A stretch of 64,000 nt of DNA from NCBI GenBank assembly GCA_964547425.1, contig CAZJNH010000005.1, positions 17,703-81,702 on the forward strand, written 5' to 3'. The stretch's first letter is position 1, and every line of letters starts with the position of its first letter. The notes under the pieces were generated by a model that had not been told where the DNA came from, did no database searches, and saw only the letters and a program-made list of their open reading frames with translations. Below are positions 10,004 to 59,351 of this stretch, piece after piece. The DNA comes from an uncultured Candidatus Saccharibacteria bacterium. Its GTDB lineage: Bacteria > Patescibacteriota > Saccharimonadia > UBA4664 > CAZJNH01. The translations under genes and the position numbers were made by a program.

Positions 10004-10462
10004 CTAAATCTCGCCTCGTTCCTGTAGCTCATTTTGAATTTCTTTGATGTTTCCGAGAAATTCCCTCCGCACCGCTAAATCCACGTCGTCGATATAAGGC
10101 GATGGATAACTGCGGCTCAAAAATTTTCCTCTGCGCTCGCTGGTCGACCAGGCATACGACGAGTACTCGCCAGTATCTTTTTCGGTGAAGAAAGCGAACC
10201 CACCAAAGAGAGGGTCAATCTCACCCCGAACAGTTAACTCAATTTTAGAATATTTGCCTACATCCTCGAGCTCTAAATGTTTAGTAGGATATGTGACCTC
10301 GTCCCCTTCAGAAGTGTGCGCTGTTTCTTCGGTCGTTTCGGTCTCAGGGTGCTTAAAAACGATGCTTCTTGCCGTACTGAAGCTTTCGTCGAACAACCTA
10401 TCCTTTTCAGCTTGTTCGGGATTACCGATCTCTTCTGGTGTTGTGCCACTGGTCTCGGACAT
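10004..10462 (-). CDS. Acidic protein of unknown function, RGEI-terminating paralog family member A
   Basis: 152-aa ORF. It shares TPEEIGNPEQAEKD, HPET and a C-terminal ...ELQERGEI* with ORFs 11473..11913 and 62937..63470. Confidence 0.65.
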   Translation of the reverse strand: MSETSGTTPEEIGNPEQAEKDRLFDESFSTARSIVFKHPETETTEETAHTSEGDEVTYPTKHLELEDVGKYSKIELTVRGEIDPLFGGFAFFTEKDTGEYSSYAWSTSERRGKFLSRSYPSPYIDDVDLAVRREFLGNIKEIQNELQERGEI

Positions 10463-11472: not shown

Positions 11473-11913
11473 TTAGATCTCGCCTCGATCCTGAAGTTCG
11501 TTTTCTACCTGTGTGATTAATGCCTGCAACTCCCTCCGTTCGGATATGTCCGTATCCCTTTTGTAGTTTTGGAGGTCATTGTCTTCTAGGTAAGTGATTT
11601 TGCGGTCTTCACTCCAACCATAATCGCGCGCTGGCAGGTCTTCTTTGGGTTCAAAAAAGATAGCGTTAAGCTTCCCTTCGGAATGAGCCGTATGCGATTC
11701 GGTTTTACGAGCTAGTATGGCACGGCCATAGCCAGCGACGTCAAGCAATGTGACATGCCTCGCCTCAACACCATGAGAACTTTCAATTCTAGCTTGGGGA
11801 TGACTTAGAAGGATATTAGTTACCGTTCTCAATGTTGAATTATAAATTTTGTCTTTCTCGGCTTGTTCCGGGTCAGCAAGTTCTTCAGGTGTTGGTCCGG
11901 GACGTTCACGCAT
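11473..11913 (-). CDS. Acidic protein of unknown function, RGEI-terminating paralog family member B
   Basis: 146-aa ORF with the same N-terminal TPEELADPEQAEKD and C-terminal ...ELQDRGEI* motifs as member A. Confidence 0.65.
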   Translation of the reverse strand: MRERPGPTPEELADPEQAEKDKIYNSTLRTVTNILLSHPQARIESSHGVEARHVTLLDVAGYGRAILARKTESHTAHSEGKLNAIFFEPKEDLPARDYGWSEDRKITYLEDNDLQNYKRDTDISERRELQALITQVENELQDRGEI

Positions 11914-21415: not shown

Positions 21416-21558
21416 TGTCTTTCCTTTCGTTTCACGGAAATGAACAGGGTCGCTTTAATAGGAGGTGTGTCTGACAATGTGGTCAGTATTACACGCAAAA
21501 CTCCTCACTTGAGGGGACATTTGAAAGAGCGTAGAGCGTAATTAGTTTACACTATTTA

Positions 21559-21586
21559 TGCTTATCTGTCAATAGCTGTTATGGTT
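21559..21586 (-). promoter_or_regulatory. 28-bp repeated promoter-like motif, copy 1 (TGCTTATCTGTCAATAGCTGTTATGGTT)
   Basis: The minus strand reads TTGACA-17-TAAACT. The same sequence recurs at 22280..22307 with 1 mismatch. Confidence 0.5.
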
Positions 21587-22224: not shown

Positions 22225-22279
22225 CCCATCCTCCTGCGTTTGAATATGTCGAAGAGCTCACGAGATCTTACATTAAAAC

Positions 22280-22307
22280 TGCTTATCTGTCAATACCTGT
22301 TATGGTT
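22280..22307. promoter_or_regulatory. 28-bp repeated promoter-like motif, copy 2 (TGCTTATCTGTCAATACCTGTTATGGTT); possibly divergent promoter
   Basis: Minus strand: TTGACA-17-TAAGAT. Plus strand: extended -10-like TGTTATGGT upstream of the ORF at 22326. Confidence 0.5.
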
Positions 22308-22325
22308 CGTGATAGGATTAGATTT

Positions 22326-22562
22326 ATGCATTGGCAGGACATTGTATTGGCAGCTGGATCGTTCGTTTTTGCCGTGGCCTTAATTCCTACAGTATTAAGC
22401 AAAGAGAAGCCGCCACTATCGACCAGCCTGCTGACCGGCATAACCTTGCTGGTATTTGCGGTCGTCTACGCCACTCTCTCATTATGGCTATCCTTCTTCA
22501 GCACCTGTATAACGGCCGCGCTTTGGCTGACGATCGCGGCTCAAAGACTGATTAAAGTCTGA
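22326..22562 (+). CDS. Small integral membrane protein (2-3 TM helices), function unknown
   Basis: ORF 22302..22562 trimmed to MHWQDIVLAAGSFVFAVALIP.... The hydrophobic segments support coding. The 3' end overlaps truB by about 22 nt. Confidence 0.4.
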   Translation: MHWQDIVLAAGSFVFAVALIPTVLSKEKPPLSTSLLTGITLLVFAVVYATLSLWLSFFSTCITAALWLTIAAQRLIKV

Positions 22563-23220: not shown

Positions 23221-23327
23221 CAAACTCTAAGATTCAAACTCTAAGTCCTAAGTAAGTTTCAGGATTAAAGTCTTAAGTCTTTGAACTTTAATCTTACTTA
23301 GAGTTTAGAACTTAGTTCTTAGAGTTT
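23221..23327. repeat. CTAAG-unit palindromic intergenic element (copy A)
   Basis: The AAACTCTAAG units form a long imperfect inverted repeat with CTTAGAGTTT units. Related copies lie at 47380..47491 and 59272..59332. Confidence 0.6.
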
Positions 23328-24399
23328 ACGGCTCCAGGAAGCTGGCGAGTCCAGACTTGATGTGGTCAGGGAGCTCGAACTCAATTCTAGCTTCAGATTC
23401 CAGATCTTCGGCGGGTCCTTCGGCTTCCACTCTCGGTTGGGCTATTACCTCTGGCCGCTCTTCCATCTTCTCGGTGGGTTGAGGTTTGTCTTCAGACTTC
23501 GGCGGCTCAGCCTTCTCTGCCTTCTCGGCGCTGGCTTCTGGCAGCTGTTCTTTCTTCTGAGGCTCTGGATTCTTCAACTCGGCCAACTTCTTCAGCTCCT
23601 GCTGATTCTTCTCAGCTTGCTGCTGATGATCAGTGGCTGGTTCATGATGCCCAAACAATCCTTTGACTACCTTTGGCTGGTCAGCACCCGCGGCTATTAA
23701 CTGCGCTGAGAGAGTCAAAGATTTAGCCGTAGTGTGAGGGGCGGTGAAACGATCCGTTGATGCATACAGGCCGGCTAGCAGGGTTGTCGCGATCTCCTCA
23801 TCCAGGCTAACCTGCAAAGATTCCGCCAACGCGGCTAGAATCTCGCACAAACTGGCGGCCTGGCCATCGATTAAGTTAACCGCCGCGAAGTTCTCGTTTG
23901 AGCGATGGAAATCGATGTTAATCATCGGCACCTTGGCCGTGAATTCAGGGTGAGCCGAGATAACCTTGTCGATCCGGTCGCGGGCAGGAACACCCAAAAC
24001 GATGGCCAGGTCGTAGTTGTACTGCCCATGGTCAAACGTGACGTCGCCTTTATCAAAGCTGCCCGAGAACGGAGTAATAAATAAGTTCAGTTTGCCGTCT
24101 TCAATGGTGTAGCGCAGTTTGTCGATCTCGGCTTTAGATAAGCCCAACCGAATAATGAAGTCCCTCGAACCGCCTAGCTGCTTCTCGAGCTGATCCAGGG
24201 CGAGGAAGTTCAGTTTGTGGGGCAGTTGGTCGGAGATGACCGCGTTCACCCGCTTGCCCAGCTTGCGCAAAATCAACATCATCGCCAAAACCGCCGCGGC
24301 TTGGTCGGGCGTTGGCCGGTGGCCGGCGGTAACTAGAATCGTCTCGGCCTGTTTTATGGCTTCGGACGCTTGCTGTTTGGGATTTACGGTTTGTTCCAT
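23326..24399 (-). CDS. DHH/DHHA1 phosphoesterase (NrnA-like nanoRNase/pAp phosphatase) with Lys/Glu-rich C-terminal tail
   Basis: DHH-family motifs are present. Start trimmed to MEQTVNPK, which is preceded by a GAGGAAG RBS. Confidence 0.7.
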   Translation of the reverse strand: MEQTVNPKQQASEAIKQAETILVTAGHRPTPDQAAAVLAMMLILRKLGKRVNAVISDQLPHKLNFLALDQLEKQLGGSRDFIIRLGLSKAEIDKLRYTIEDGKLNLFITPFSGSFDKGDVTFDHGQYNYDLAIVLGVPARDRIDKVISAHPEFTAKVPMINIDFHRSNENFAAVNLIDGQAASLCEILAALAESLQVSLDEEIATTLLAGLYASTDRFTAPHTTAKSLTLSAQLIAAGADQPKVVKGLFGHHEPATDHQQQAEKNQQELKKLAELKNPEPQKKEQLPEASAEKAEKAEPPKSEDKPQPTEKMEERPEVIAQPRVEAEGPAEDLESEARIEFELPDHIKSGLASFLEP

Positions 24400-27384: not shown

Positions 27385-28944
27385 ATGAGGGGTCCAAACA
27401 GCGTGAGGGAATTTATCAGCCAGAAAAAGCAGGCCTATCTGGCCTTGTCGCAGGAAAACAAATTCTTCCAGCCCGGCCTGCTCGTGGTGGTAGCTCTGTT
27501 GGCGATTGTCGGTATCTACTTAATCTTCCGATCCTTTGCTGCCACCGTCCAAACTCTAACTTTTGGACCCATAGCCGACGCCACGGTCGCGAACAAAACC
27601 GCAGCTAGTACTAACTACGGAGCCAATACAACTTTGGTGGCGGTGGCTGGGTCAGCTACCACCAGCCGTAAGGATTTCTTACTGAAGTTCACGGTCAGTG
27701 GAATCTCTGGCAAGAAAATTGATTCGATCAAAGTTAAGTTATACGCCACCAACGGTTCGGCCTCCGGGGGCAAAATCTATGGTACCGCTAATACGGTAAT
27801 TAACTCAGATAATTCCGTCTCCGCTTTGCCCGACTGGAACGATGGTTCGGTTAATTGGAACACCGCTTACAAAACCGCCAACCCACCCCTTTTAGACTCA
27901 ATTGGCACAGTCTCAGCTGGTCATTGGTACAACTTTAATGTCACCGCCGCGGTCAAAGGTGATGGCACCTATACTTTTCGGGTAGCCAACGGCTCCGCTA
28001 ATAACGTTACTTACGGCTCTAAAGAATCCGCCACCCCGCCGCAACTGGTTGCCACCGTTGAGCAACCAGCTGACTCCACTCCCCCAAGTGCTCCGACCAA
28101 CCTTACAGCCGAAGTAAGAAGCGGCTCAATTACCGACCTATTTTGGACGCCCAGTATGGACAACGTTGGCGTGGTTAATTACTACGCTTATACCTCAGAT
28201 GGCACTATAGCTGGCGCCACATCTAACGAAGCGGCTGGTAGCACTTGGGTACACGTAGGTACAAAACCTGCCACTCAGTACAGCTACTACGTCAAGGCTG
28301 TCGACGCGTCAGGCAACCTCTCTGCTCCCTCAAACACCGTTACTATCACTAGCAACCCGATCGACACCACCGACCGCACCTGTGCCATGCCGGAAGGGTT
28401 CCAAATTGAAATCAACACGGCTGGTGGCTATACCTGCGACTCCATCTACTCAATGCTAAAAGAAAATGCCTACCCAAACGATTTCGCCAAAGTCACCGCC
28501 CACTTCAAAATAATGGTGCAAGACGTCTACCCGTCTTCGGTCACGGCGCATTCTAACACCGTCAACGGAACCACGTGGTATAGCGCAACGATGTACCTAA
28601 ATGGAGTTGGAAGCTCGTTTAGTGTTGACCCCGACGGCATTTTGGCTCACGAGTACGGCCATGTCTGGACGCTTTACGGGTGGAATATGCTCCATAACGA
28701 TGACTGGACCTTGTACAACAATATTCGCTGGGATGCCGACGATGGGTCGAGTATTATTGCCCAAAACCCTCTGCTACACAAATCGTATGAGTGGGACCAA
28801 GCCGAAATGATAGCAGAGGATTACCGATTACTGTTTGGGGGCCCAGCCGCTAAATATTTTAGACACATCAACCCCGATATCGCTGATCCAAGGCTTCAGC
28901 CCGGCCTCAAAGATTGGCTACTCCACACCTGGGCTAATGAATAA
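27385..28944 (+). CDS. Membrane-anchored surface protein: DNRLRE-like domain + fibronectin III + C-terminal HExxH putative zinc-metallopeptidase domain (paralog 1)
   Basis: N-terminal signal-anchor (LLVVVALLAIVGIYLIF). ADATV...KDFLLKF...LKLYAT pattern (DNRLRE-like), FN3 segment, and HEYGHVW motif. Confidence 0.7.
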   Translation: MRGPNSVREFISQKKQAYLALSQENKFFQPGLLVVVALLAIVGIYLIFRSFAATVQTLTFGPIADATVANKTAASTNYGANTTLVAVAGSATTSRKDFLLKFTVSGISGKKIDSIKVKLYATNGSASGGKIYGTANTVINSDNSVSALPDWNDGSVNWNTAYKTANPPLLDSIGTVSAGHWYNFNVTAAVKGDGTYTFRVANGSANNVTYGSKESATPPQLVATVEQPADSTPPSAPTNLTAEVRSGSITDLFWTPSMDNVGVVNYYAYTSDGTIAGATSNEAAGSTWVHVGTKPATQYSYYVKAVDASGNLSAPSNTVTITSNPIDTTDRTCAMPEGFQIEINTAGGYTCDSIYSMLKENAYPNDFAKVTAHFKIMVQDVYPSSVTAHSNTVNGTTWYSATMYLNGVGSSFSVDPDGILAHEYGHVWTLYGWNMLHNDDWTLYNNIRWDADDGSSIIAQNPLLHKSYEWDQAEMIAEDYRLLFGGPAAKYFRHINPDIADPRLQPGLKDWLLHTWANE

Positions 28945-30517
28945 AATGAAAGCGTTCATCAATCAGAAAAAACAAGCTTTTCACGCACTTGGCCAGCAGA
29001 ACAAATTCCTCCAACCGGGTCTGCTCGTGGTTGTGGCTCTTTTGGCTGTTGTCGGCATTTACCTTATCTTCCGCTCGTTTGCCGCTACCGTTCAAACCTT
29101 AACTTTTACACCTACGGCAGACGCAACGGTCGCGAACAAAGGTGCCGCAAATACTAATTATGGTACCAATCCAACCCTCATAGCGGTCGCCGGTACTAGC
29201 ACCACGGCCCGCAAGGATTTTTTGCTCAAGTTCACCGTCTCAGGAATCTCCGGGAAGAAAATCGATTCGATCAAGCTTAAGCTCTACGCTACTAACGGGT
29301 CAGGCTCGGGTGGCAAAATCTATGCCGCCAATAATACAGTCATTAGCTCAGATAACTCCACTTCGACGCTGCCGGATTGGACGGATGGTTCTGTGAATTG
29401 GAACAACGCCTACAAGATCGTTAACCCGCCAGTATTAGCTTCAGTTGGCTCGGTCTCCGCAGGGCACTGGTACTCCTTTGACGTTACTGCCGCGGTTAAA
29501 GTTGACGGTACTTACACATTCCGAGTGGCCTCAAGTTCGACCAACAACGTGGCTTACGGCTCAAAAGAGTCAGCGTACGCTCCTCAAATAGTAGCCACCG
29601 TCGAACCTCCTGCCGACACGATAGCTCCGACAGCACCAAGTGGGCTTAAGGGCTTTACGGTTGACTCGACCCGGGCAGATCTAAGCTGGACACCAAGCAG
29701 TGATGATCAAGGGGTTGTTGGGTATTATGTTTACGCTAACGGAGTTAAGGTCGACGAAACCCACTTCACCCAATTAATACCAGCCATAATGGCGGAGAAC
29801 TTAAGACCTTCCACCCTGAATAGCATTTACGTTAAGGCCGTAGACGCAGCTGGCAACCTGTCTCCGTCCTCCAATACCATTACTCTAACCACCAATCCAC
29901 CAGGGCCAACCATAGTTACATGCCCTACGACGGCGGAAGGAGTAAAGATAAGTATCAACTCAGCTTCCAGCTTTAGTTGCGCCTCCATCAACAACATCCT
30001 AAAAGCCAACGCGTACCCGGGAGACTTTGCTAAGATCGCGCCCCTTTTGACGATTAACGTGCAGGATACCATTCCGACGCAAGTAGCACCCTCCTTATCT
30101 AGTGAAAATGGCGTCTTTACGGCCTTCACGGCCATTCTTTACTTTAAAGGGGTAAATTCAACTGCTTCAATCGTCCCAGATCGCCAGCTAAGCCATGAGT
30201 ACGGCCATGTGTGGAATTTCTACCACGACTACATCGACCACAACGGGGATCTTCGCCTCAATAGGGAAAATTCAATATACGATAAAACCCGCTGGGACAT
30301 TGAGGATGGGGCCCTAACCATTAGTCAGAATCCATTGTTAAACCACTCCTACGAATGGCAAGACCAGGAAATCATTGCCGAGGACTACCGCCTACAATTC
30401 GGTTCGCTTCTAGGCATTGCCGAAGGTACTCAGATCAACCCCGACATCCCTGATCCCCGGAGTCAGCCTGGCCTGCGCGACTGGTTCCTCAACACCTGGG
30501 CCGTTAAACAGCCTTAG
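28937..30517 (+). CDS. Paralog 2 of the DNRLRE-FN3-HExxH surface protein
   Basis: About 55% identical to the upstream gene throughout, including the signal-anchor and HEYGHVW. Start taken at MNKMKAF, overlapping the upstream stop. Confidence 0.7.
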   Translation: MNKMKAFINQKKQAFHALGQQNKFLQPGLLVVVALLAVVGIYLIFRSFAATVQTLTFTPTADATVANKGAANTNYGTNPTLIAVAGTSTTARKDFLLKFTVSGISGKKIDSIKLKLYATNGSGSGGKIYAANNTVISSDNSTSTLPDWTDGSVNWNNAYKIVNPPVLASVGSVSAGHWYSFDVTAAVKVDGTYTFRVASSSTNNVAYGSKESAYAPQIVATVEPPADTIAPTAPSGLKGFTVDSTRADLSWTPSSDDQGVVGYYVYANGVKVDETHFTQLIPAIMAENLRPSTLNSIYVKAVDAAGNLSPSSNTITLTTNPPGPTIVTCPTTAEGVKISINSASSFSCASINNILKANAYPGDFAKIAPLLTINVQDTIPTQVAPSLSSENGVFTAFTAILYFKGVNSTASIVPDRQLSHEYGHVWNFYHDYIDHNGDLRLNRENSIYDKTRWDIEDGALTISQNPLLNHSYEWQDQEIIAEDYRLQFGSLLGIAEGTQINPDIPDPRSQPGLRDWFLNTWAVKQP

Positions 30518-31227
30518 AATTCTTGTTTGGAGTACCAGTGCTCTTCGTTCACGAACTTGCTGCGCTTACCTTCGATCATCGCCAGCTCTGTTTCGAAACT
30601 GGCAAACCTCTTTTTCAGTTTGCGCGCCTGGTCGATGCTCATCCATTTGTTGCGCCCGCCTTCAAACTTCTCGATCAGTTTGCCTTTCACGTTTGTACAG
30701 TGGACCACGAAAAACATTTTGTCTTCCATATTCTCGCCGGTTTCTTTGAGATAGGTGTGCTCGTGATAAAGTCCGGTCGTTTTGAAATCCGCTTCGAGCC
30801 CAGTTTCTTCCATCAGTTCCCGGCCGGCTGTGAGAGTTAGGGTCTCGCCCCACCGCACTTTGCCGGTCGGAAAGCCCCAATAACCGAAGTAGGGATTCTT
30901 CAAACGTTCCTGGAATAACAGCTGGCGCTGGCCCCGAAATTCCCGTTCAATCGCCAATAGCACCGCAACCTTAGGCTGGCGCTCAATGGTCTTGGAGTCG
31001 GTGTCGAGCTTGTTGGCGTACTCTTTGCCTTTTGGGCTTAACCGGTACTTCCCGCGGGAGACTTTTTCGACCAGACCGTAGTCTACCAACCGGGCGATGT
31101 GGAAGCTAAAGTGGTCACTAGACAGCCCGGTCGGCTTTTGGAGTTCCGAATATCCGGCGTGAGGCAAAAACAACAGTTCCCGCAGAATGCTGGTTTGGGC
31201 GGCATGGATCTTTACCTCGAGACTCAT
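30514..31227 (-). CDS. Winged-HTH + NUDIX hydrolase fusion
   Basis: N-terminal ArsR-like wHTH. Nudix box GKVRWGETLTLTAGRELMEETGL. Confidence 0.7.
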   Translation of the reverse strand: MSLEVKIHAAQTSILRELLFLPHAGYSELQKPTGLSSDHFSFHIARLVDYGLVEKVSRGKYRLSPKGKEYANKLDTDSKTIERQPKVAVLLAIEREFRGQRQLLFQERLKNPYFGYWGFPTGKVRWGETLTLTAGRELMEETGLEADFKTTGLYHEHTYLKETGENMEDKMFFVVHCTNVKGKLIEKFEGGRNKWMSIDQARKLKKRFASFETELAMIEGKRSKFVNEEHWYSKQEF

Positions 31228-31241
31228 GCGCCAATCTTAAC

Positions 31242-31778
31242 CTAAGCGGACAATAAATCTAGTAAAGTCGACTTTACTATTTCGGCATCACTCGGTTTTG
31301 TGAAGTGCCCGTGCCCATCAACTTCGATCTTTTTCGCGCCGATCTTTTCCGCGACCGCCCGAGCCGATTCTGGCGAAACCACATCGTCATCTTTCGACAG
31401 CAAGACCGTCACTTTTTCCTTCCAGCGCTTAACCCTCTCAACGTCTATCAACCGCTGCCATTTGTTGTCCGATTTCTTGTGCGGGATGTCGGGCGGAGCG
31501 ATTAATAACACTCCGTCGATATTTTTAGCGTTCGACTTCTCAAGATAAAAGATCACGGCCCGCGTCCCCAAACTGTGGCCAACCAGAAAAACCGGCTGGT
31601 CCGCCGATTCCACTTCTCGTTTGATTATTTCGATCCACTCCTCAGCTGGCGGATGCTTGTGCCCCGGCATCGCTGGAATTATCACTTCATGGCCGAGCTT
31701 CTCTAACTCCTCCCGAATCTGCGGATACCAATCCGCCTCCGGCTTCGACATATACCCATGAATAAAAACAAATTTCAT
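31242..31778 (-). CDS. Alpha/beta hydrolase, YdeN/RBBP9-like serine hydrolase
   Basis: VFIHGY...GHSLG nucleophile elbow. Start trimmed to MKFVFIHGY. Confidence 0.65.
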   Translation of the reverse strand: MKFVFIHGYMSKPEADWYPQIREELEKLGHEVIIPAMPGHKHPPAEEWIEIIKREVESADQPVFLVGHSLGTRAVIFYLEKSNAKNIDGVLLIAPPDIPHKKSDNKWQRLIDVERVKRWKEKVTVLLSKDDDVVSPESARAVAEKIGAKKIEVDGHGHFTKPSDAEIVKSTLLDLLSA

Positions 31779-32275
31779 TTTGGATAAATTAAATCGATCG
31801 CTATTTGCATTGAGGGTACGTACTTTCCCGGATTTTGGGCAACATCTTTGATAAGCTCTTCTTTCGGTACCCAAGCGACCTTTTCAACTTCATCTTCCTG
31901 AAGGCGAAATTCCGACTCCGGCCGGTCAAGCTTCGCGGTAAACAACTGAATCCATTGTTTGCGTGGCCCCACAGACATAAGTTTTGGACCTAACACAAAC
32001 TTCACTCCACTAAGCCCAATTTCTTCTTCGGCCTCTTTATAAATGTTGGATTCATAGGTCTCATCATGCTCAACCGTTCCGGCCACGGCGGGTCCCCATT
32101 TGTTTGGCTCCTTAGCCTTGGTATGGTGACGCTGGGCTATCAGGACATCGCCCTTCGAGTTAGTTAGCCAAAGCGCGGAGCAGCGGAAAATATCGATGCC
32201 TTCTCTGATCTTTCGCCGATCTAAACTTCCAATCACTTTGTCCTGATCATCAACGATTAGCACCTTCGGCTTCAC
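31775..32275 (-). CDS. NUDIX hydrolase
   Basis: Nudix box GTVEHDETYESNIYKEAEEEIGL. Confidence 0.7.
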   Translation of the reverse strand: MKPKVLIVDDQDKVIGSLDRRKIREGIDIFRCSALWLTNSKGDVLIAQRHHTKAKEPNKWGPAVAGTVEHDETYESNIYKEAEEEIGLSGVKFVLGPKLMSVGPRKQWIQLFTAKLDRPESEFRLQEDEVEKVAWVPKEELIKDVAQNPGKYVPSMQIAIDLIYPK

Positions 32276-32811
32276 TTCAACTTATCCAAAACGGCCGGGG
32301 CGAGTTCGGGGAAGTCTTTGTCCATGAAATGATTTCGATTGGCGAATTCGTGATAGTCGGTGTTCAACTTTTTGTGCACGAATCGTGATTCTTCCGCCGG
32401 AATGAATTCGTCGTCGGTCGAAGCAAACTGGATAATCCATTTTTGGTTAGCTTTGATTTTGTTCCATTGCCAGGGTTTATCGAAATAACCACTCTCTTTT
32501 TCGTCTTCGTAACCTAAATCAGTGTGGTAGGTGCCGATTAAGACCGAACCAAGAAGTTTGTGATCTTCGGCGTAACGCATGACCGCGATCGCACCCGACG
32601 AATGGCCAATGATTATCGTATTTTCGTCGGCCTTAAGTTCATTTTCGATGTATGGCAGCCAGAATTTTGCGCGAGCTTTAACGTTGTCCGGCATCGTTCC
32701 CGCCCAAACCTCAACCCCGGCTTTCTCCAGCTCCGTCTTAACCCCCGGGATCCAAATATCATTCCCCGTCGCCCCACCATTCCCGTGGATGATAATCACA
32801 CGCGGCTTCAT
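32272..32811 (-). CDS. Alpha/beta hydrolase, YdeN/RBBP9-like (second copy)
   Basis: IIHGNGG...GHSSG motif. It is a paralog of the gene at 31242..31778. Confidence 0.65.
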   Translation of the reverse strand: MKPRVIIIHGNGGATGNDIWIPGVKTELEKAGVEVWAGTMPDNVKARAKFWLPYIENELKADENTIIIGHSSGAIAVMRYAEDHKLLGSVLIGTYHTDLGYEDEKESGYFDKPWQWNKIKANQKWIIQFASTDDEFIPAEESRFVHKKLNTDYHEFANRNHFMDKDFPELAPAVLDKLK

Positions 32812-33470
32812 TGGAGTTCCTGGTATTCTTTAACACCTTTGACTAAATCACCAAACCCCGAAACTATGTGCGTTGGCCCGTAAGCCTTCAGTTTATCGAA
32901 GTCGTAAAATATCTCGTGCTGTTTAGGAAAAACCAAAATACTGTCTACGCCCGCATTCTTCGCTGCTTCGATATCCTTTGCCGAATCGCCGATCATCACC
33001 GCCTGCGCTTTTTCACCTCCTAATTCTTTGAGTGCCTTTTCTATGACCTCGGGATGGGGCTTGTGGCTAGTGACGTCATCGGCGGTCAAAATAACTTCAA
33101 AGTATGACCGAACCCCTGTGTTATCGAGTGGTTTTTTGATGTCTTGTGGTCTGGAACTAGTCAGCAAAGCAAGTTTTTTACCAGCCGCCTTAAGCTCTTC
33201 CAGCAATTGCTTGGCTCCCTCGTATAAGTGAACATGAGGGAGTTTTTCTTCTACAATTCGGTCCATTAGATCCATACAGGAAGTATAATCGGCTTCACTA
33301 ACTCCAAGATTCTTAGGACCGTTCCAGTTGCCGAATTGGTTAGCGATCTCTTTGTCGGTAGCATGAACGCCGAACTTTGCCATCGACTGCCGATAAGCTT
33401 CCAGCCAAATCTCAAGAGTGTTGGCGAGGCAGCCGTCCCAATCGAACAAGAAATAATCGTAGTTTTTCAC
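32808..33470 (-). CDS. HAD-IA phosphatase (beta-phosphoglucomutase-like)
   Basis: FDWDGCL, ...SSR...K... and GDSAKDIEAAKNAG motifs. Confidence 0.75.
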   Translation of the reverse strand: MKNYDYFLFDWDGCLANTLEIWLEAYRQSMAKFGVHATDKEIANQFGNWNGPKNLGVSEADYTSCMDLMDRIVEEKLPHVHLYEGAKQLLEELKAAGKKLALLTSSRPQDIKKPLDNTGVRSYFEVILTADDVTSHKPHPEVIEKALKELGGEKAQAVMIGDSAKDIEAAKNAGVDSILVFPKQHEIFYDFDKLKAYGPTHIVSGFGDLVKGVKEYQELQ

Positions 33471-33502
33471 TTCAGCTGGTCCCAGTTTTGGCCGATGACG
33501 GT
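33471..33502. repeat. Direct repeat R1: duplicate of the last about 10 codons of polA
   Basis: TTCAGCTGGTCCCAGTTTTGGCCGATG is identical to 34432..34458 and would encode ...IGQNWDQLK*. Confidence 0.8.
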
Positions 33503-33504
33503 CA

Positions 33505-34431
33505 TCAATTGAGTACCCCCGACTTATTTATGCTGTAGGTCCGGACGTGCGATTCGCCGAGCTCCGCGCTGCCATCCTCCTTCAGGATCCTGGTATGAGT
33601 TTCAAAACTGACTGGCTCGCCCGTCATTAGCAAGGAATGGGCTTCATCATCAAGGCTATAAAACGCTGGGCCAAACTGCCTTTTTCCGTCATGGCTTTGA
33701 TACACGACCGGATTAGTGACATCGAGCAAAATATGCACACCTTGCTTAGGCTCTAGAACCTGGAACGAATGCATTTCTTGAGTTTTTTGCCCTTGCGATT
33801 CGGTCTCTAGTTTACCCGCTACAAGTGTAGACTTAATGCCAGCGAATTTAAGTAAATTGTGCGTTACGGCAGCCCGTTCGGTACAGGCTGCAACGGCTTT
33901 GCCGGTCTCCTCAGCTTTATCGGCGAACTCTTTAATAGACATAACTCGCTCGGACTCAGTTCCATCTTCGTTGGGTTGAAGTACGCCAGCATCCATGATC
34001 ATCCGTTGCCTCTCAGACGAAGAACCAAAGCCCTTGAAGTAGACGGCTTGGCCATAAAATGCTTCTCGGATGGCCATATTAAAATAACCGGTCGGATCAT
34101 TCTCTGTCTGTGGCAACTTTTCAAAGTTGCGGTACTGCTTAATCCTGTCGACAAAGATTTTATAAGGCTGCTCATCGTCTAACTTATAGCTTCCTCCCAT
34201 CATCAAGTTGGGCGTGATTTCAGTCTCCGGGTGAATAAACTCAGCGTACGGTTTAGACATAGCATCGAGGTGTGTTTTGACACTCTTTTCATTCAGTTCG
34301 CTTAAGCGCTTATCAATAAATTCATCGTAGTTGATTGATTCAATGTTTGCTTGTTTATCGACGATCGCCGCCAATTCAGCCGGGTATTTTGGCTGCTCAG
34401 TCTCCGCGTTAAAGCCCTGGGTTTCGCTCAT
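33505..34431 (-). CDS. Hypothetical protein (308 aa) inserted between polA and the HAD gene
   Basis: Its ATGA start overlaps the polA stop. It is flanked by the 30-bp direct repeats R1 and R2. Confidence 0.6.
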   Translation of the reverse strand: MSETQGFNAETEQPKYPAELAAIVDKQANIESINYDEFIDKRLSELNEKSVKTHLDAMSKPYAEFIHPETEITPNLMMGGSYKLDDEQPYKIFVDRIKQYRNFEKLPQTENDPTGYFNMAIREAFYGQAVYFKGFGSSSERQRMIMDAGVLQPNEDGTESERVMSIKEFADKAEETGKAVAACTERAAVTHNLLKFAGIKSTLVAGKLETESQGQKTQEMHSFQVLEPKQGVHILLDVTNPVVYQSHDGKRQFGPAFYSLDDEAHSLLMTGEPVSFETHTRILKEDGSAELGESHVRTYSINKSGVLN

Positions 34432-37160
34432 TTCAGCTGGTCCCAGTTTTGGCCGATGGCAGTTGAGACTTCGATGGGAACGCCGAGGTCGTGGACGTTT
34501 TCCATTGTATCCTTCATGATTTTGGCGACCGCTTCGGCGTCCGTTTTATCGCATTCGGCGATCAATTCGTCGTGGATTTGCAGGAGCAGGTCGGCTTTGC
34601 CTTCCAGTTTTGGCGCCAGTTTGATCATAGCGATCCGCATAATGTCGGCCGCGGTACCCTGGATAGGCACGTTCACCGCCATGCGCTCGGCGGCGTTGGC
34701 GATCATAAAGTTGTTGGAGTTAATCTCCCCGCACGGCCGGCGGCGGCCAAACAAAGTTTCGACGTATTCGTTCTTGCGCGCGTCGGCTTTAACCTTGTCG
34801 ATGTACTCGCGAAGTTTCGGCCGTACCTGGTAGTAACGGTCAATGAAACCCTTGGCTTCCTCAAACGTCATGCCTGTACCCTGCGCCAAACTGTGCGCGC
34901 CCATACCGTAAAGCACGCCAAAGTTGGTGGTCTTGGCGTTGTAGCGCTGCTGTTTGGTAACTTTGTCGATCGGCACGCCATACAGCTCTGCCGCGGTTTG
35001 CTGATGAATGTCGATGCCCTCTTCGAAGGCTTTAATCATATCCTTGTCCTTCGAGAGAGCGGCAGCGACCCGCAGTTCAATCTGGGAGTAATCCGCGCCC
35101 ACAAACACCCGGCCTTTCGGGGCAATGAAGGCTTTGCGGATCTGCCGGCCCAGCTCGGTCCGGACCGGGATGTTCTGCAGGTTTGGATTTATCGAGTTCA
35201 GCCGGCCGGTTTGAGTAATGGTTTGGCTAAAGCTGGTGTGGATCCGGCCGTCGCCCGCCACCTGCTGCGGCAGTGTATCGATATAGGTGGTTTTGAGCTT
35301 CATCAGCTCCCGGAATTCCATTAAGTGGTCGATGATCGCGTGCGTGCCCTGAAGCTTGTCCAGTTCCTTCGCCGCGGTCGACAAACTGCCGGTTTTGCCC
35401 TTTTTTACACCTTGCGCTACCAAACCAAGCTTGTCGTAGAGAATCTTTGAGAGCTGCCCGGGGGCCGCGATATTAAACCGCTCGCCGGCTTGCTTATAAA
35501 TCTCCTGCTCAAGCTTGAGGATCTTGGCGCTGACTTCTTTATTCAGCTTCTTCAAGAATTCGACATCGAGAGAGATGCCGGCAATCTCCATTTCGGCCAG
35601 GACCTTTATCAGTGGCCAATCGGTTTCTTCAGCCAGTTTTTTGTAGTGCTTGTCGATGCCGGGCTTGAGTTTTTCATACAGCCTCCAGGTGACATCGGCG
35701 TCTTCGGCGGCGTAGCGAGTGGCGTCCTCGATGTTCGCCAGATCGAAAGTCGACTGGTTTTTGCCTCGGGGACCGATGAGATCCTCTATCGGGATCATCT
35801 CGATGCCCAGCTCACGGAAGGCCAGGTCGGAGAGCGTTGGTGTACGGGCTAGCGGGTTCAGAATAAAGCCGGCGATCATTGTGTCGAACGCTAAGTTTGA
35901 GATTTTGGCGCCATGTTTGCGCATAACCTCGTAGTCAAACTTGAGGTTGTGGCCGACGATTTGGCTCTTGGGATTCTCCAAAACCGGCCTAATAATTTCA
36001 ACGGCAATTTTAGTTTCCAGCTGCAGCCCTTCTTTGTGTCCGGTGGGAATGTAATACGCCTCTCCCTCCTTAAAACTGACCGACATACCAACCAAGTTGG
36101 CGGTCAAAGTATCCAGCGCGTCGGTCTCGACGTCGAACGCGAAAACCCGTTTTTGTTCAAGTTTTTTGACCAGCTCGCGCAGAGCTTTTTCGTCCGCAAC
36201 CGTAATGTAATTTGATTGTTCAATGTGCGTGCGTTTGACCGGCTCGGCCGCGCCCTCGAACAGCGTGCCCTGGCCGCCAGCGCTGCCACCCGGTAGTTTG
36301 TCCAGTAAACTTTTAAAGCCCATGTTCCTGAACAAGTTGTGCAGAGCCTGCCGGTCGACGTTACCAACCCGGACCTTCTCCAGATCAAGCTTGTACGGCG
36401 CGTCACACATAATCGTGGCTAATTTATAGCTTAAATAGGCGATATCTTTGTTATCCCGCAGTTTCTCCTGAACTTTGCCGGGGATCTCATCCAAGTGCTC
36501 ATAGATGCCATCGAGGCTTTTATACTCTGCCAGCAAACCAACCGCCGTTTTGTCGCCGACTCCCGGCACGCCGGGGATGTTGTCGCTCGAGTCGCCGGCC
36601 AGCGCTTTGTAATCGATCACCTGGTCCGGTTTAAAGCCGTAGCGTTCGTAAGCCTTAGCCGCGTCGATTATTTCGGTGTCGGTCATCCCCCGGCGCTGCA
36701 TAAAGATCGAAACGTGAGGGTGGTTATCTAGTAACTGGAAAGTGTCGCGGTCGTTGGTAACGACGATGATTTCGAGATTTTTGTCGGCTTGCTCAATGAT
36801 CGTTCCAATAATGTCGTCGGCCTCATAACCGTCTAGCTCGACCAACGGCAAACCCATCGCGGCTGCAAACTCCATTACATGAGGGATTTGAGCCTTAAAG
36901 TCATCCGGCATCACCTTGCGGGTAGCTTTGTACTCCGGGTACATCGCGAGGCGTTTGGTCAGCGCCGTTTTGGCCTTGTCCCAGGTGAGAATTGCGTAAT
37001 CCGGCTTGAGATCAGCGTAGGCTTTTAAAACCATTTGGGCGAAGCCGTAAACCCCGCCGGTCGGCTGGCCTTCGGGAGATGTCAAATTTCCCAGCGCGTG
37101 GTACGCCCGGTAAAACACCGCCTTCCCGTCTATTAAAACCAACCTCGGCTTCTTTGCCAT
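34428..37160 (-). CDS. polA: DNA polymerase I
   Basis: 910 aa with 5'-3' exonuclease, 3'-5' exonuclease-like and polymerase domains (motifs A/B/C). Confidence 0.95.
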   Translation of the reverse strand: MAKKPRLVLIDGKAVFYRAYHALGNLTSPEGQPTGGVYGFAQMVLKAYADLKPDYAILTWDKAKTALTKRLAMYPEYKATRKVMPDDFKAQIPHVMEFAAAMGLPLVELDGYEADDIIGTIIEQADKNLEIIVVTNDRDTFQLLDNHPHVSIFMQRRGMTDTEIIDAAKAYERYGFKPDQVIDYKALAGDSSDNIPGVPGVGDKTAVGLLAEYKSLDGIYEHLDEIPGKVQEKLRDNKDIAYLSYKLATIMCDAPYKLDLEKVRVGNVDRQALHNLFRNMGFKSLLDKLPGGSAGGQGTLFEGAAEPVKRTHIEQSNYITVADEKALRELVKKLEQKRVFAFDVETDALDTLTANLVGMSVSFKEGEAYYIPTGHKEGLQLETKIAVEIIRPVLENPKSQIVGHNLKFDYEVMRKHGAKISNLAFDTMIAGFILNPLARTPTLSDLAFRELGIEMIPIEDLIGPRGKNQSTFDLANIEDATRYAAEDADVTWRLYEKLKPGIDKHYKKLAEETDWPLIKVLAEMEIAGISLDVEFLKKLNKEVSAKILKLEQEIYKQAGERFNIAAPGQLSKILYDKLGLVAQGVKKGKTGSLSTAAKELDKLQGTHAIIDHLMEFRELMKLKTTYIDTLPQQVAGDGRIHTSFSQTITQTGRLNSINPNLQNIPVRTELGRQIRKAFIAPKGRVFVGADYSQIELRVAAALSKDKDMIKAFEEGIDIHQQTAAELYGVPIDKVTKQQRYNAKTTNFGVLYGMGAHSLAQGTGMTFEEAKGFIDRYYQVRPKLREYIDKVKADARKNEYVETLFGRRRPCGEINSNNFMIANAAERMAVNVPIQGTAADIMRIAMIKLAPKLEGKADLLLQIHDELIAECDKTDAEAVAKIMKDTMENVHDLGVPIEVSTAIGQNWDQLK
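34432..34463. repeat. Direct repeat R2 (native 3' end of polA)
   Basis: See R1. Confidence 0.8.
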
Positions 37161-37266: not shown

Positions 37267-37302
37267 AAAGACGAACCCCGAAGGGTCCGCCTTCGGGGCT
37301 TA
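37267..37302 (-). terminator. Repeated stop-codon-embedded intrinsic terminator (copy 1)
   Basis: The minus strand reads TAA-GCCCCGAAGG-cggac-CCTTCGGGG-UUCGUCUUU. An identical 36-nt sequence lies at 38212..38246. Confidence 0.6.
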
Positions 37303-38142
37303 ACGAGCTGTCGCTCGCTTTTCGAATGCTTGTCGGATTTCTTCAACCGACATATTTTCCATTTGGCGGGCTTGCTGATCGGACAACCGGTCGCCCATGA
37401 CCAAATTGAGTAGGTCTTCTTTCGTTAACTCCAGACCCATCCGCTCTTTGAGCAGCAGCTCAAGGTAGGCGGGATTGAACGAGGCTGGAGGTATCCAAGT
37501 TTCCCTCAAAACCGGAGCCCGATTGCCAGATGCAACAAGAGCGGCGAATCGTTCTGAAAGGATCTGCCCAACCCGCAGATGCAAGCAGCCGATCGGCATC
37601 ACAACCCGCAAGTCATCGACCAAAGCGGCAAAAGGACGAACCACCTGTCCGATCTGGCGAAGAATAAAATCTTCGCGTTCTAGCTGCGCGGATAGATGAA
37701 GCTTATGCAGATTCCGACGAAACTCAAACTCCTCTTCGAATTGATCGAGATGCGGAGCGATCTCAACGGCGTGGAGTTGGCCGAATAAGCGATCGAACTC
37801 CGGGAAGGTTACGGGCATGTCAGCGCAGGCGATTTCGGCGCCGCACTCAAACAACACCTCAAGAAACGCCAGTCGATATGGAACCGAAAATGCCTTCGAA
37901 CTCTCCATCACTTTGCGCTCACTAGCCAGCGCGGCGGCGTCGCCGTTGGCAATCGCCTGATGCTTCTGCAGCCACTCGTCTTGCCAACCGAAGCATTCAA
38001 GCAGCAAGACGTCAGCTTCTTCTAATTGCCTGTGCAGCTCACCGAGGTCACCCAAGTCTTCCGGGATCGCGTGCGCGTGATAGAGCATATGGATATCAAC
38101 GCTCGGCGGAATTCCGAAGCTACTCTTATAGGTCCTGGACAC
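37300..38142 (-). CDS. Hypothetical protein (280 aa)
   Basis: Long ORF with coding-like composition; no recognisable motif. Confidence 0.5.
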   Translation of the reverse strand: MSRTYKSSFGIPPSVDIHMLYHAHAIPEDLGDLGELHRQLEEADVLLLECFGWQDEWLQKHQAIANGDAAALASERKVMESSKAFSVPYRLAFLEVLFECGAEIACADMPVTFPEFDRLFGQLHAVEIAPHLDQFEEEFEFRRNLHKLHLSAQLEREDFILRQIGQVVRPFAALVDDLRVVMPIGCLHLRVGQILSERFAALVASGNRAPVLRETWIPPASFNPAYLELLLKERMGLELTKEDLLNLVMGDRLSDQQARQMENMSVEEIRQAFEKRATAR

Positions 38143-38211
38143 AAGTTACCTCTCTTGAAGGGCTACCAAAACGGTCGAGGGAATTATATAAGAAAAACTT
38201 GGGAAGGTGAA

Positions 38212-38246
38212 AAGACGAACCCCGAAGGGTCCGCCTTCGGGGCTTA
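38212..38246 (-). terminator. Repeated stop-codon-embedded intrinsic terminator (copy 2)
   Basis: Identical to copy 1, located at the stop of ORF 38244..39176. Confidence 0.6.
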
Positions 38247-39176
38247 AGTCGTTGCCATCTCTGGCAAGTTAGCGGTCAGTTCGACCACCGGTTCGATCAT
38301 GGTGATGCTGTCGAGGTCGAGGTCCCATATGTTGCCGTTGTAAAGCGTTTGGACCTTCAACCTTGGCAACTCTTGATCCTTCTTCGGCACCAGCTTCAAA
38401 ACTCGCGCGATCAGCGGATCGTTTTGAGTCTTGTAGTACTCGCGTTTTTCCTTCCGCCATTGGTCGGTCCAGTCGAAGTAGTAGAACTTAACGCGATCGG
38501 CGGAAGAGAAGCGGCAATATTTGCCAATTCTGCTACTCAGCTCACCGACGAGAGAGGCGATCGCGGCACTCAACCGCTCTTTCCGTCCCGAGCTCACGTC
38601 TTCGGCAAGGCGCCACTTCGCCAGAGCTTCGTTCAGTTCCGCTACCGGTAAGAACACCGGCTCCGGGGCCAACTGGCTGGCGACCTCAACTCGGCTGTCT
38701 GGTGTTAGCCGGAAGTACTCCAGCCCACCGGCTTCCGCCATAAGAGATGGCCCAGCCCAAGTGTTTTTCTCGTTGTAGCGCAGTAGCCCTTTTTCCCGTT
38801 CGACAAGTGTCTTGCCTTGATCGTGCGTGAACTTGGTAACGGATATGTACTGATTGCCCAGCCGCCGAAGTAGCTCGACCGCTATTTTCTTGGCGCCCTT
38901 GGCGTTGCCCGCGGCTCCCTGGGCTTGGCTCTGCGCTTCGTGATACAAACGCAAAGCATCACCCAGGTCATCGGGGTCGCCGAACTCCATCTCGAAGCGC
39001 GGTGGAGGTTTGGGTTCAGCTTCTTTGCGAGCGGCCTCTTCGGCCTTGCGCTGTTCCTCCGCCTTTATTTCAGCCTCAGCCCTCAGCCGCTTGCGACGCC
39101 GGCGGAGGTTCGAGACGAGGACGAACAGGAACGTACTCCCGAGCATGATTATCACAAACCACGCGAAACGAGACAT
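38244..39176 (-). CDS. Membrane-anchored hypothetical protein (N-terminal TM helix, charged coiled-coil region)
   Basis: MSRFAWFVIIMLGSTFLFVLV, followed by a KAEEQRKAEEAARKEAE-type segment. Confidence 0.5.
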   Translation of the reverse strand: MSRFAWFVIIMLGSTFLFVLVSNLRRRRKRLRAEAEIKAEEQRKAEEAARKEAEPKPPPRFEMEFGDPDDLGDALRLYHEAQSQAQGAAGNAKGAKKIAVELLRRLGNQYISVTKFTHDQGKTLVEREKGLLRYNEKNTWAGPSLMAEAGGLEYFRLTPDSRVEVASQLAPEPVFLPVAELNEALAKWRLAEDVSSGRKERLSAAIASLVGELSSRIGKYCRFSSADRVKFYYFDWTDQWRKEKREYYKTQNDPLIARVLKLVPKKDQELPRLKVQTLYNGNIWDLDLDSITMIEPVVELTANLPEMATT

Positions 39177-41160: not shown

Positions 41161-41174
41161 TTTTTAACCGTAAC

Positions 41175-41238
41175 CCAAAACTTGTAATTCCCTAACCTGA
41201 AAAGGGTTACACCCTTAACAGATTGGGGAATTACAAGG
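41175..41238. repeat. 63-nt hairpin repeat element, copy 1 (bidirectional terminator-like)
   Basis: CTTGTAATTCCC...GGGAATTACAAG 12-13-bp outer stem with an internal sub-hairpin. It is near-identical (1 indel, 1 substitution) to 56309..56373. It lies right after the gmk stop. Confidence 0.7.
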
Positions 41239-41240
41239 TG

Positions 41241-47379: not shown

Positions 47380-47491
47380 CAAACTCTAAGGACTAAACTC
47401 TAAGAACTAAGTAAAACTAAAGATTAAGATTTTGATCTTTAGTTTTGATTCTTTAATCTTACTTAGAGTTTGGTTCTTAGCTCTTAGAGTT
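47380..47491. repeat. CTAAG-unit palindromic intergenic element (copy B)
   Basis: AAACTCTAAGGACTAAACTCTAAGAACTAAG...CTTACTTAGAGTTTGGTTCTTAGCTCTTAGAGTT, with the centre near 47430. The right arm overlaps the last codons of ORF 47477..47794. Confidence 0.6.
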
Positions 47492-47794
47492 CGCGGCCTT
47501 CATGGCAGAAGCGGCCTTTTCGGCTAAACCCAGCCACTCGTCCGAGTGTTTGGCCGGTACCACTACCCATTCCTTCATTGGACGACCCATGCCCGGATCG
47601 AACAGCTCGGCACCGTCGAGCTTGAGCGCCTCCTCGCGGTCGTTTTCATCCACCAATTTAAACACCATGTCGCCCTTCCACTCACCACCCAGCGCTTTGC
47701 CATTTAACTTCCAGACCGGCATGCCAAACATCTTGCCTTTATCTGCTTCGGCAAAATTACTCATCAATTCGTCGGCAATCTCATCAAACGTCAT
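47477..47794 (-). CDS. TfoX N-terminal-domain-like small protein
   Basis: 105 aa; ...KGKMFGMPVWKLNGK... resembles the TfoX_N/YjbR-like fold. Tentative. Confidence 0.45.
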   Translation of the reverse strand: MTFDEIADELMSNFAEADKGKMFGMPVWKLNGKALGGEWKGDMVFKLVDENDREEALKLDGAELFDPGMGRPMKEWVVVPAKHSDEWLGLAEKAASAMKAANSKS

Positions 47795-56295: not shown

Positions 56296-56308
56296 CAACG
56301 ACCTTCAT

Positions 56309-56373
56309 CAAAACCTTGTAATTCTCTAACCTGAAAAGGGTTACACCCTTAACAGATTGGGGAATTACAAGGT
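56309..56373. repeat. 63-nt hairpin repeat element, copy 2 (between convergent genes)
   Basis: See copy 1. T-rich sequence follows on both strands. Confidence 0.7.
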
Positions 56374-59271: not shown

Positions 59272-59332
59272 AGTCCTAAGAACCAAACTCTAAGTCCTAA
59301 AGCGCTACTTAGAGTTTAGGGTTTAGAACTTG
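59272..59332. repeat. CTAAG-unit palindromic intergenic element (copy C)
   Basis: CCTAAGAACCAAACTCTAAGTCCTAAAGCG/CGCTACTTAGAGTTTAGGGTTTAGAACTTGG inverted repeat between groEL and the upstream gene. Confidence 0.55.
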
Positions 59333-59351
59333 GATCTTCCGCCGCAGGCGG

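Follow-up and report, generated by a model that had tools for sequence, protein, structure and literature searches.

Integrative elements target the 3' ends of tRNA genes and of some protein genes and leave attL/attR repeats on either side; their integrase-less derivatives are known as cis-mobilisable elements. Translational coupling through overlapping stop and start codons (ATGA, GTGA or TGATG) is familiar from the trp and ribosomal-protein operons. DNA may also be integrated without a dedicated recombinase: homology-facilitated illegitimate recombination (HFIR) and the Campbell-type single crossover are known in Acinetobacter, Streptococcus, Pseudomonas and E. coli, and a single crossover with a circular or circularised piece duplicates the homologous segment (PMC3240628). 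Here we describe a locus in a 64-kb stretch of contig CAZJNH010000005.1 (this entire stretch is hereafter called the window), in which a gene for a 308-amino-acid (aa) protein, orf308, lies between polA and a HAD-family phosphatase gene and is bracketed by two copies of the last codons of polA. On balance, we interpret it as the scar of a lineage-specific, integrase-free gene gain and not as an active mobile element.

Like the coupled operons, the locus has stop/start overlaps of 1 or 4 nt from polA to the sixth gene downstream, and the distal copy of the polA tail, a relic lying outside polA, keeps this pattern for the phosphatase gene. Unlike them, it has its coupling module in duplicate: two consecutive genes use the same 30-odd nt upstream of their starts. 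With HFIR and single-crossover events the locus shares a duplicated segment and an integration that would need one homologous anchor or short segment and no recombinase, in a host that has RecA and belongs to a naturally competent phylum. It differs from them in scale, as known duplications are 109-950 bp (PMC3240628) and the one described here is 36 nt, near the RecA-dependent lower limit, and in that the joins fall almost exactly at the boundaries of an open reading frame (ORF).

All genes of the polA locus are on the minus strand. The features that bear on the insertion are the following:

34428..37160, minus strand: polA, an intact core gene for DNA polymerase I (910 aa; from the ORF and the domains of its homologues)
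34428..34463, minus strand: proximal repeat copy, the last 11 codons of polA and its stop; AAATGA contains the orf308 ATG
33505..34431, minus strand: orf308, the inserted gene, 308 aa; its ATG overlaps the polA stop (ATGA)
33467..33502, minus strand: distal repeat copy, a relic of the polA tail outside polA; its TGA overlaps the HAD GTG
32808..33470, minus strand: HAD-family phosphatase, 220 aa, the original partner 3' of polA (Pfam HAD_2, 1.4e-42; GTG start)

A repeat search identified the two tail copies as a direct repeat (33467-33502 and 34428-34463) of 36 nt with 33/36 positions identical (92%) and a spacing of 961 nt. In an alignment of the two junctions, identity between the copies ends sharply on either side of these 36 nt; a longer homology was considered and rejected, as the only extension (CTCAAyTG, with a gap of 6-7 nt) was judged not significant. 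On the coding strand, the proximal copy reads ACT GCC ATC GGC CAA AAC TGG GAC CAG CTG AAA TGA, corresponding to the polA C-terminus ...TAIGQNWDQLK-stop, and the distal copy reads ACC GTC ATC GGC CAA AAC TGG GAC CAG CTG AAG TGA, or T-V-I-G-Q-N-W-D-Q-L-K-stop. Two of the three differences are synonymous in the polA frame. The original prediction, made from the sequence, had placed a repeat of the polA 3' end 961 bp away, a single 308-aa gene between the copies with its ATG overlapping the polA stop, and a distal TGA overlapping the GTG of the HAD gene; the repeat search, the ORF coordinates and the GTGA junction bear out all of these points. The search for further copies that it had proposed leaves the exact 27-nt core, TTCAGCTGGTCCCAGTTTTGGCCGATG (33471-33497 and 34432-34458), confined to these two sites within the 64 kb, with three mismatches allowed. 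Two matches to the 27-mer were obtained in 0 of 100 dinucleotide-preserving shuffles of the window, and none are expected by chance.

Logan assemblies of two separate runs, SRR9179560 and SRR9179562, match the sequence exactly across polA, orf308, the relic and the HAD gene (covering window positions 32771-36405 and 33333-35266). Because these matches are independent and the 27-nt core is shorter than the Logan k of 31, the duplication of the polA tail around orf308 is confirmed as real and is not an assembly artefact.

Relatives of the locus were sought in a set of genomes from 185,579 species and in a collection of 5.8 billion proteins. The closest relatives of polA are Saccharibacteria (76-78% identical), and judging by these the source is an uncultured Saccharibacterium of the Patescibacteria, or candidate phyla radiation (CPR). 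The closest homologue of the HAD protein (P0272, 73% identical) is encoded on L063, a Logan contig of 1,160 nt, where it is located directly after polA. This contig begins with the polA C-terminus ...GVPIEVETNSGHNWEDLK-stop (...GHNWEDLK-stop), the TGA of which overlaps the HAD ATG (ATGA) with nothing between them, and the HAD gene is followed directly by a NUDIX gene whose product is 66% identical to that of the window. Two genes of the window have no counterpart in the L063 arrangement: orf308, which separates polA from HAD, and a gene for a 179-aa Ser_hydrolase, which separates HAD from NUDIX. Since L063 couples polA directly to HAD, the inferred ancestral empty-site arrangement exists, and the predictions that the two genes were once directly coupled and that orf308 was inserted with duplication of the junction are upheld by this empty site and by the relic tail beside the HAD gene. 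We consider it very probable that the locus is an insertion scar with a junction duplication. By our own count, the L063 tail is approximately 78% identical to the window copies, as against 92% between these copies, so the duplication would post-date the split from L063 and belong to the window's own lineage. The relic tail also allows the direction of the event (gain, not loss) to be read without a close relative, which suggests that orphaned gene tails could offer a simple way of spotting recent gene gains in metagenome-assembled genomes.

The scan for recombination genes took in the neighbours of orf308 and 39 further ORFs of the window, covering most ORFs within approximately 10 kb. No integrase, resolvase, transposase or other recombinase domain was found in the ORFs scanned, in keeping with the original prediction that no integrase or transposase is present. 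A repeat search and our own reading showed no terminal inverted repeats (TIRs) at the ends of the insert, and there is no attC-like site after orf308, where the 34 nt are the polA-tail copy. There is no tRNA gene within 17 kb of the locus, the sole one being 17 kb away. The capacity for host recombination and DNA uptake that a recombinase-independent insertion calls for is encoded in the window by RecA (8.5e-140), RecX and PilM. Natural competence with homologous integration has been shown experimentally in Saccharibacteria (PMC10633639), and gene transfer is frequent among Patescibacteria (PMC12455944). We lean towards an integrase-free mechanism.

Such a mechanism would have started from an ancestor in which polA ended in ...GQNWDQLK-TGA, with its stop overlapping the HAD start and the two genes translationally coupled. 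Acquired DNA of approximately 925 nt, containing almost exactly one ORF (orf308), would have been joined into the polA-HAD junction without a dedicated recombinase; it probably entered by natural transformation, and the host's own recombination or replication would have joined it in where there was short homology. We envisage three variants. In the first, with one-sided homology, a donor polA-orf308 fragment would have crossed over within polA and been joined illegitimately to the recipient at a point 36 nt short of its polA stop, so that the recipient's own tail would survive as the relic and the three mismatches would represent donor versus recipient alleles. In the second, a circular piece carrying orf308 and a polA tail would have been integrated by a single crossover, the homology being near the minimum length. 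In the third, a replicative template switch would have jumped at the ATGA microhomology and returned 36 nt behind its point of departure. Members of the orf308 family usually begin with MSE..., so (ATG-AGC) ATGA would be a natural microhomology with the polA stop. At the left joint, ATGA is shared; the right joint offers AC only, or the weak CTCAAyTG that needs a gap of 6-7 nt.

In the product, the proximal copy would preserve the C-terminus of polA and couple polA to orf308 through ATGA, and the distal copy would have been retained for the translation-initiation context that it gives the HAD gene. As the same bases encode the polA C-terminus and provide this initiation context, only insertions that duplicate the junction would keep both genes working, and selection for this dual-function sequence could account for the neatness of the product. 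Overlapping stop and start codons should make it hard for streamlined CPR genomes to add a gene without damage to its neighbours; the locus would be one concrete solution, in which a duplicated junction spares both the end of the upstream gene and the start signals of the downstream gene.

The relic may also have a role of its own. An ATG in the frame of the polA tail stands directly at the orf308 stop, so the relic would form a mini-ORF of 12 codons:

33467..33505, minus strand: candidate 12-codon mini-ORF MTVIGQNWDQLK-stop, from our reading of the sequence

This mini-ORF is ATG ACC GTC ATC GGC CAA AAC TGG GAC CAG CTG AAG TGA. It overlaps the orf308 stop with its ATG (AAT TGA TGA CC..., giving TGATG) and the HAD start with its own stop (GTGA). 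The relic may keep the HAD gene translationally coupled; that it acts as a functional relay passing ribosomes from orf308 to HAD is a tentative suggestion. A structured RNA at the relic was rejected: the fold of the region is not more stable than that of shuffled sequence (z = +1.47), and no Rfam family was found at the locus.

The 3' end of polA is followed by other genes in other relatives, as listed here:

L001: EamA and RibD_C after polA
L029: Fpg and holA after polA
L030: Ham1 and Ser_hydrolase after polA
L031 and L032: small ORFs and then Fpg after polA

The polA stop is fused to the next gene (ATGA, TAGTG or GTGA) in L001, L029 and L030. With 78% and 94.5% identity in L001, the conserved downstream anchors d210 and d237 indicate that the relatives' loci are the same locus; the backbone DnaG - RpoD - ... 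- polA - ... - holA is likewise conserved among relatives. As a different gene follows polA at this same locus in every relative, the polA 3' end behaves, to judge from gene order, as a cargo-exchange hotspot in Saccharibacteria. The type of event is already known: an insertion scar at a gene-exchange hotspot of a competent, streamlined bacterium. Two further observations concern this site. On a Saccharibacteria-like metagenome contig (L046, 4779-8160), a member of the orf308 family is located between Fpg and dut/holA, in the general polA-Fpg-holA neighbourhood but not adjacent to polA. In a distant CPR relative (L016, 8630-8870), the last ~70 nt of polA and a downstream palindrome (of the GGATTCCCGCCTTCGCGGGAATGAC type) form a tandem duplication of approximately 140 nt; here, a polA tail has been duplicated independently.

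The product of orf308 had been labelled hypothetical, and a word-indexed search, in which it matched only itself, made it appear to be an orphan. Both views are corrected by a full HMMER search against 1.84 billion cluster representatives, which returned 234 distant homologues with E<=1e-3 (94 with E<=1e-10), mostly of approximately 290 aa and 24-41% identical, and by a recognisable predicted fold. Across an alignment of 43 sequences, C183 and H221 do not vary, and D237, N240 and P241 are nearly invariant (D237 is present in at least 90%), so that orf308 has the conserved Cys-His-Asp triad of the transglutaminase-like superfamily. An AlphaFold2 model built with this alignment has a pLDDT of 86.8 and a pTM of 0.87 (the pLDDT of a single-sequence model was 42). 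The top Foldseek matches in the PDB are TG3, TG2, FXIII and TglA (probability up to 0.99, E ~1e-3, TM ~0.3), and the best viral structural match is an arylamine N-acetyltransferase. No solved structure matches orf308 by sequence. Among Pfam families, Transglut_core3 (PF13471), Transglut_core (PF01841) and Acetyltransf_2 all score below threshold: PF13471 reaches 20.6 bits against a cut-off of 26 bits, and 4 of the 43 members have weak matches. Thus orf308 is like the transglutaminases and arylamine N-acetyltransferases in its conserved Cys183, His221 and Asp237, its weak PF13471 and PF01841 scores and its structural matches, and unlike them in that these scores are sub-threshold, TM is only ~0.3 and there is an additional N-terminal helical region of approximately 150 residues. 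According to the model and alignment, orf308 belongs to an unnamed family with a predicted transglutaminase/arylamine-N-acetyltransferase-like (papain-like) fold and is a predicted Cys183-His221-Asp237 enzyme; the locus brings this family to light.

A metagenome scan for loci of the family, run with 10 sequences of the alignment, found its members in unrelated neighbourhoods with no conserved neighbours, in genomes of 24-55% GC. Flanking repeats were present at none of 30 loci (the longest string shared by the flanks being 12 nt or less), none of 29 metagenome loci had the family member adjoining polA, and no member was found in viral contigs. A mobile cassette family was rejected on the basis of the missing repeats and neighbours; the unrelated contexts, the lack of repeats and the lack of viral copies indicate that the orf308 family is an ordinary accessory gene. 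In composition, orf308 (47.1% GC; 51.8% at third codon positions, GC3) lies below polA (53.8% GC; 68.7% GC3) and the window mean (53.0%). This was not accepted as decisive proof of foreign origin because the GC content is only about 1.5-1.6 standard deviations below the window mean and near that of the adjacent HAD gene.

A second gene in the window, located directly upstream of polA, is also flanked by a direct repeat:

37300..38142, minus strand: up280, 280 aa, between the copies of a direct repeat; without a match in Pfam, PHROG or PADLOC
37267..37303, minus strand: copy 1 of a 37-nt repeat, 3' of up280; a TAA stop codon, a terminator-like hairpin and a T-run
38211..38247, minus strand: copy 2 of the 37-nt repeat, 3' of a gene for 310 aa (up310, at 38244..39176)

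These repeat copies are 100% identical, with sharp edges and a spacing of 944 nt, and up280 has a promoter-like site of its own (10/12 match). The unique inserts in the window are similar in size (925 nt for orf308 and 907 nt for up280). That up280 and up310 are paralogues, which would have explained a shared terminator, was rejected. Both are absent upstream of polA in L001, L030 and L031, where a different gene directly precedes polA. A Logan contig assembled at k=31 (L067, 967 nt) corresponds exactly to the up280 unit and ends inside the 37-nt repeat at both ends, so the case of up280 is unresolvable at k=31. None of orf308, up280 and up310 has a PHROG or PADLOC match, and together with the lack of viral contigs this led us to reject a phage or defence origin for them.

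A third repeat in the window (21547-21586 and 22268-22307; 40 nt, 85% identical, with a 28-nt core at 96% and a spacing of 721 nt) encloses two small ORFs of the minus strand (79 and 105 aa), neither of which has a Pfam match. It duplicates the upstream region and the ATGGTT of a membrane-protein gene at 22302..22562 on the plus strand.

Similar structures were found at other Patescibacteria loci in our own scan of 626 kb, a small sample that was not drawn systematically:

L012, 99-135 and 1463-1499: 37-nt repeat, 100% identical, around a RelA/SpoT-like gene
L043, 6668-6703 and 7653-7688: 36-nt repeat, 100% identical
L037, 3120-3157 and 3744-3781: 38-nt repeat, 89% identical
L013, 4861-4890 and 5875-5904: 30-nt repeat, 97% identical, around a gene for 302 aa just upstream of polA

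Thus, sharp-edged repeats of 36, 37, 37, 36 and 38 nt flank segments of 0.6-1.4 kb (two in the window and one each in L012, L043 and L037). Where this was checked (orf308, up280 and L012), the flanked segment is a single gene, and three of the five repeats each consist of an entire intrinsic-terminator module.

Several points weigh against a lineage-specific, integrase-free gain of orf308. The insert is almost exactly ORF-precise, which would be a rare outcome of random illegitimate joining unless many such events had passed through selection. Other single genes, here and at other Patescibacteria loci, also have flanking repeats of 36-38 nt, and this near-constant length hints at a more regular process than ad hoc recombination. 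Divergence after the duplication and a difference between donor and recipient alleles would fit the three mismatches of the copies equally well. No polA relative above 76-78% identity was present in the collections searched, and for this reason the exact empty site of a sister strain was not seen. The adjacency of polA and HAD occurs in a single relative (L063), other homologues of the HAD protein (56-57% identity) are not encoded beside polA, and no donor in which polA adjoins an orf308 homologue was found among the 29 loci checked for polA.

The alternative that survives best is that the repeats are the attL and attR of a minimal integrative element. A circular orf308 cassette would have used a site of 27-36 bp at the polA 3' end, with a recombinase that acted in trans or has been lost, and what is now seen would be a non-autonomous remnant resembling a cis-mobilisable element. 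Direct repeats do bracket the gene, and their exact 27-nt core with an imperfect arm on each side is what a crossover core typically looks like; the insertion lies at the 3' terminus of a conserved gene and restores its coding end, and a neighbouring single gene (up280) is bracketed by a perfect 37-nt repeat. The locus is nevertheless unlike such elements in that the ORFs scanned yielded no recombinase of the tyrosine or serine type, no excisionase and no transposase, and the insert has space for only its one, non-recombinase ORF. The family does not recur with a flanking repeat (30 loci) and was not found in viral contigs, and the three unrelated repeat pairs in a single 64-kb window, which have no common motif, would need three recombinase specificities. 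We regard an integrative element as unlikely.

The original prediction had favoured a target-site or attachment-site duplication by a cassette-like insertion, and this part of it is not supported, given the lack of TIRs and attC, the lack of a recombinase in the ORFs scanned and the 0 of 30 family loci with repeats. As with transposon target-site duplications, a direct duplication of the target flanks the insert, but its 36 nt far exceed the usual 2-15 bp, which speaks against a target-site reading, there are no TIRs, and no transposase was found in the ORFs scanned. As with integron gene cassettes, the insert is a promoterless single ORF oriented with the upstream promoter; the differences are that there is no attC-like palindrome (z = +1.47), that no integron integrase was found in the ORFs scanned and that the repeat is the coding sequence of a neighbouring gene.

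It is also conceivable, if quite improbable, that Patescibacteria have a new mechanism for the sequence-independent insertion of single genes. A staggered cut or a ruler-type integrase would create a target duplication of approximately 36-38 bp upon gap filling, as Cas1-Cas2 does at the CRISPR repeat or as in the 14-15-bp duplications of casposases, and the repeats at the polA tail, up280, L012, L043 and L037 would all be its footprints. Five repeats of 36-38 nt, three of them 100% identical and with no motif in common, would be explained in this way, as would the similar size of the two window inserts. However, there is no Cas1-like or other candidate enzyme near any of the cases. Terminator modules are themselves ~35-40 nt long, so the shared length may reflect the unit that was copied and not a ruler, and further cases are 30 and 40 nt long. 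Survivorship could also narrow the range of lengths in a small and unsystematic sample, with longer repeats recombining out and shorter ones escaping detection.

We give as little credence to a reversed or more complex polarity, in which the order polA-orf308-tail-HAD is old and L063-type genomes have lost orf308, or in which the tails have been kept alike by gene conversion. Recombination between repeats of 27-36 nt would indeed restore the exact L063-type junction, and the three mismatches show that some time has passed since the copies arose. However, a stand-alone polA tail must derive from the end of polA, and a step of insertion or duplication is needed in any case; furthermore, no orf308 homologue lies near polA in 29 polA loci, and the identity of the L063 tail (~78%) is lower than that between the window copies (92%). 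An assembly or binning artefact, in which the sequences of two strain variants would have been merged where they share a k-mer, is suggested by the metagenome-assembled source and by the k=31 contig of up280 that ends inside its repeat on both sides, but its probability is close to nil, as such a mis-join leaves one copy and not two with three differences and unique flanks, and the two separate-run assemblies span the locus unbroken, base for base.

Full-length homologues of the window's polA have the 5'-3' exonuclease, 3'-5' exonuclease and DNA_pol_A domains of Pfam. Downstream of the HAD gene, the locus continues as follows:

32272..32811, minus strand: Ser_hydrolase-like, 179 aa (Pfam), with 4-nt overlaps with both neighbours
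31775..32275, minus strand: NUDIX, 166 aa (Pfam), 66% identical to the L063 NUDIX
31242..31781, minus strand: second Ser_hydrolase (ORF and domain scan)
30514..31227, minus strand: NUDIX-HTH gene (ORF and domain scan)

Stop and start codons overlap throughout the chain from polA through orf308, the relic, HAD, Ser-hydrolase and NUDIX to the second Ser-hydrolase, by 1 or 4 nt; in order, the junctions are ATGA, TGATG (of the mini-ORF), GTGA, ATGA, GTGA and ATGA. These overlaps between consecutive ORFs are those of a predicted translationally coupled operon. Both junctions of the 179-aa Ser_hydrolase gene (~32808-32811 and 32272-32275) read xTGAAGCCG and agree at 8 of 9 nt; this may be a microhomology, or else a junction duplication of much smaller size.

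The window contains several other repeats. A 73-nt repeat (41167-41239 and 56301-56373, 92% identical, 15 kb apart) includes a long inverted repeat, CCTTGTAATTCCC...GGGGAATTACAAGG, and may be a repeated intergenic hairpin element. An AT-rich repeat family (CTAAGAACTAAACTCTAAG... or TACTTAGAGTTTAG...) is present in three copies at 23227-23332, 47386-47497 and 59276-59341. A direct repeat of 300 nt (27412-27711 and 28955-29254, 73% identity, spacing 1,543 nt) probably reflects a tandem arrangement of paralogues of the CBM96/fn3 surface-protein gene (28835..30517, plus strand). Finally, two ORFs of low GC content (152 and 146 aa), one on either side of a RodZ-like gene, have copies of a 28-nt repeat (10008-10035 and 11477-11504, 86% identical) at their 3' ends and may be paralogues.

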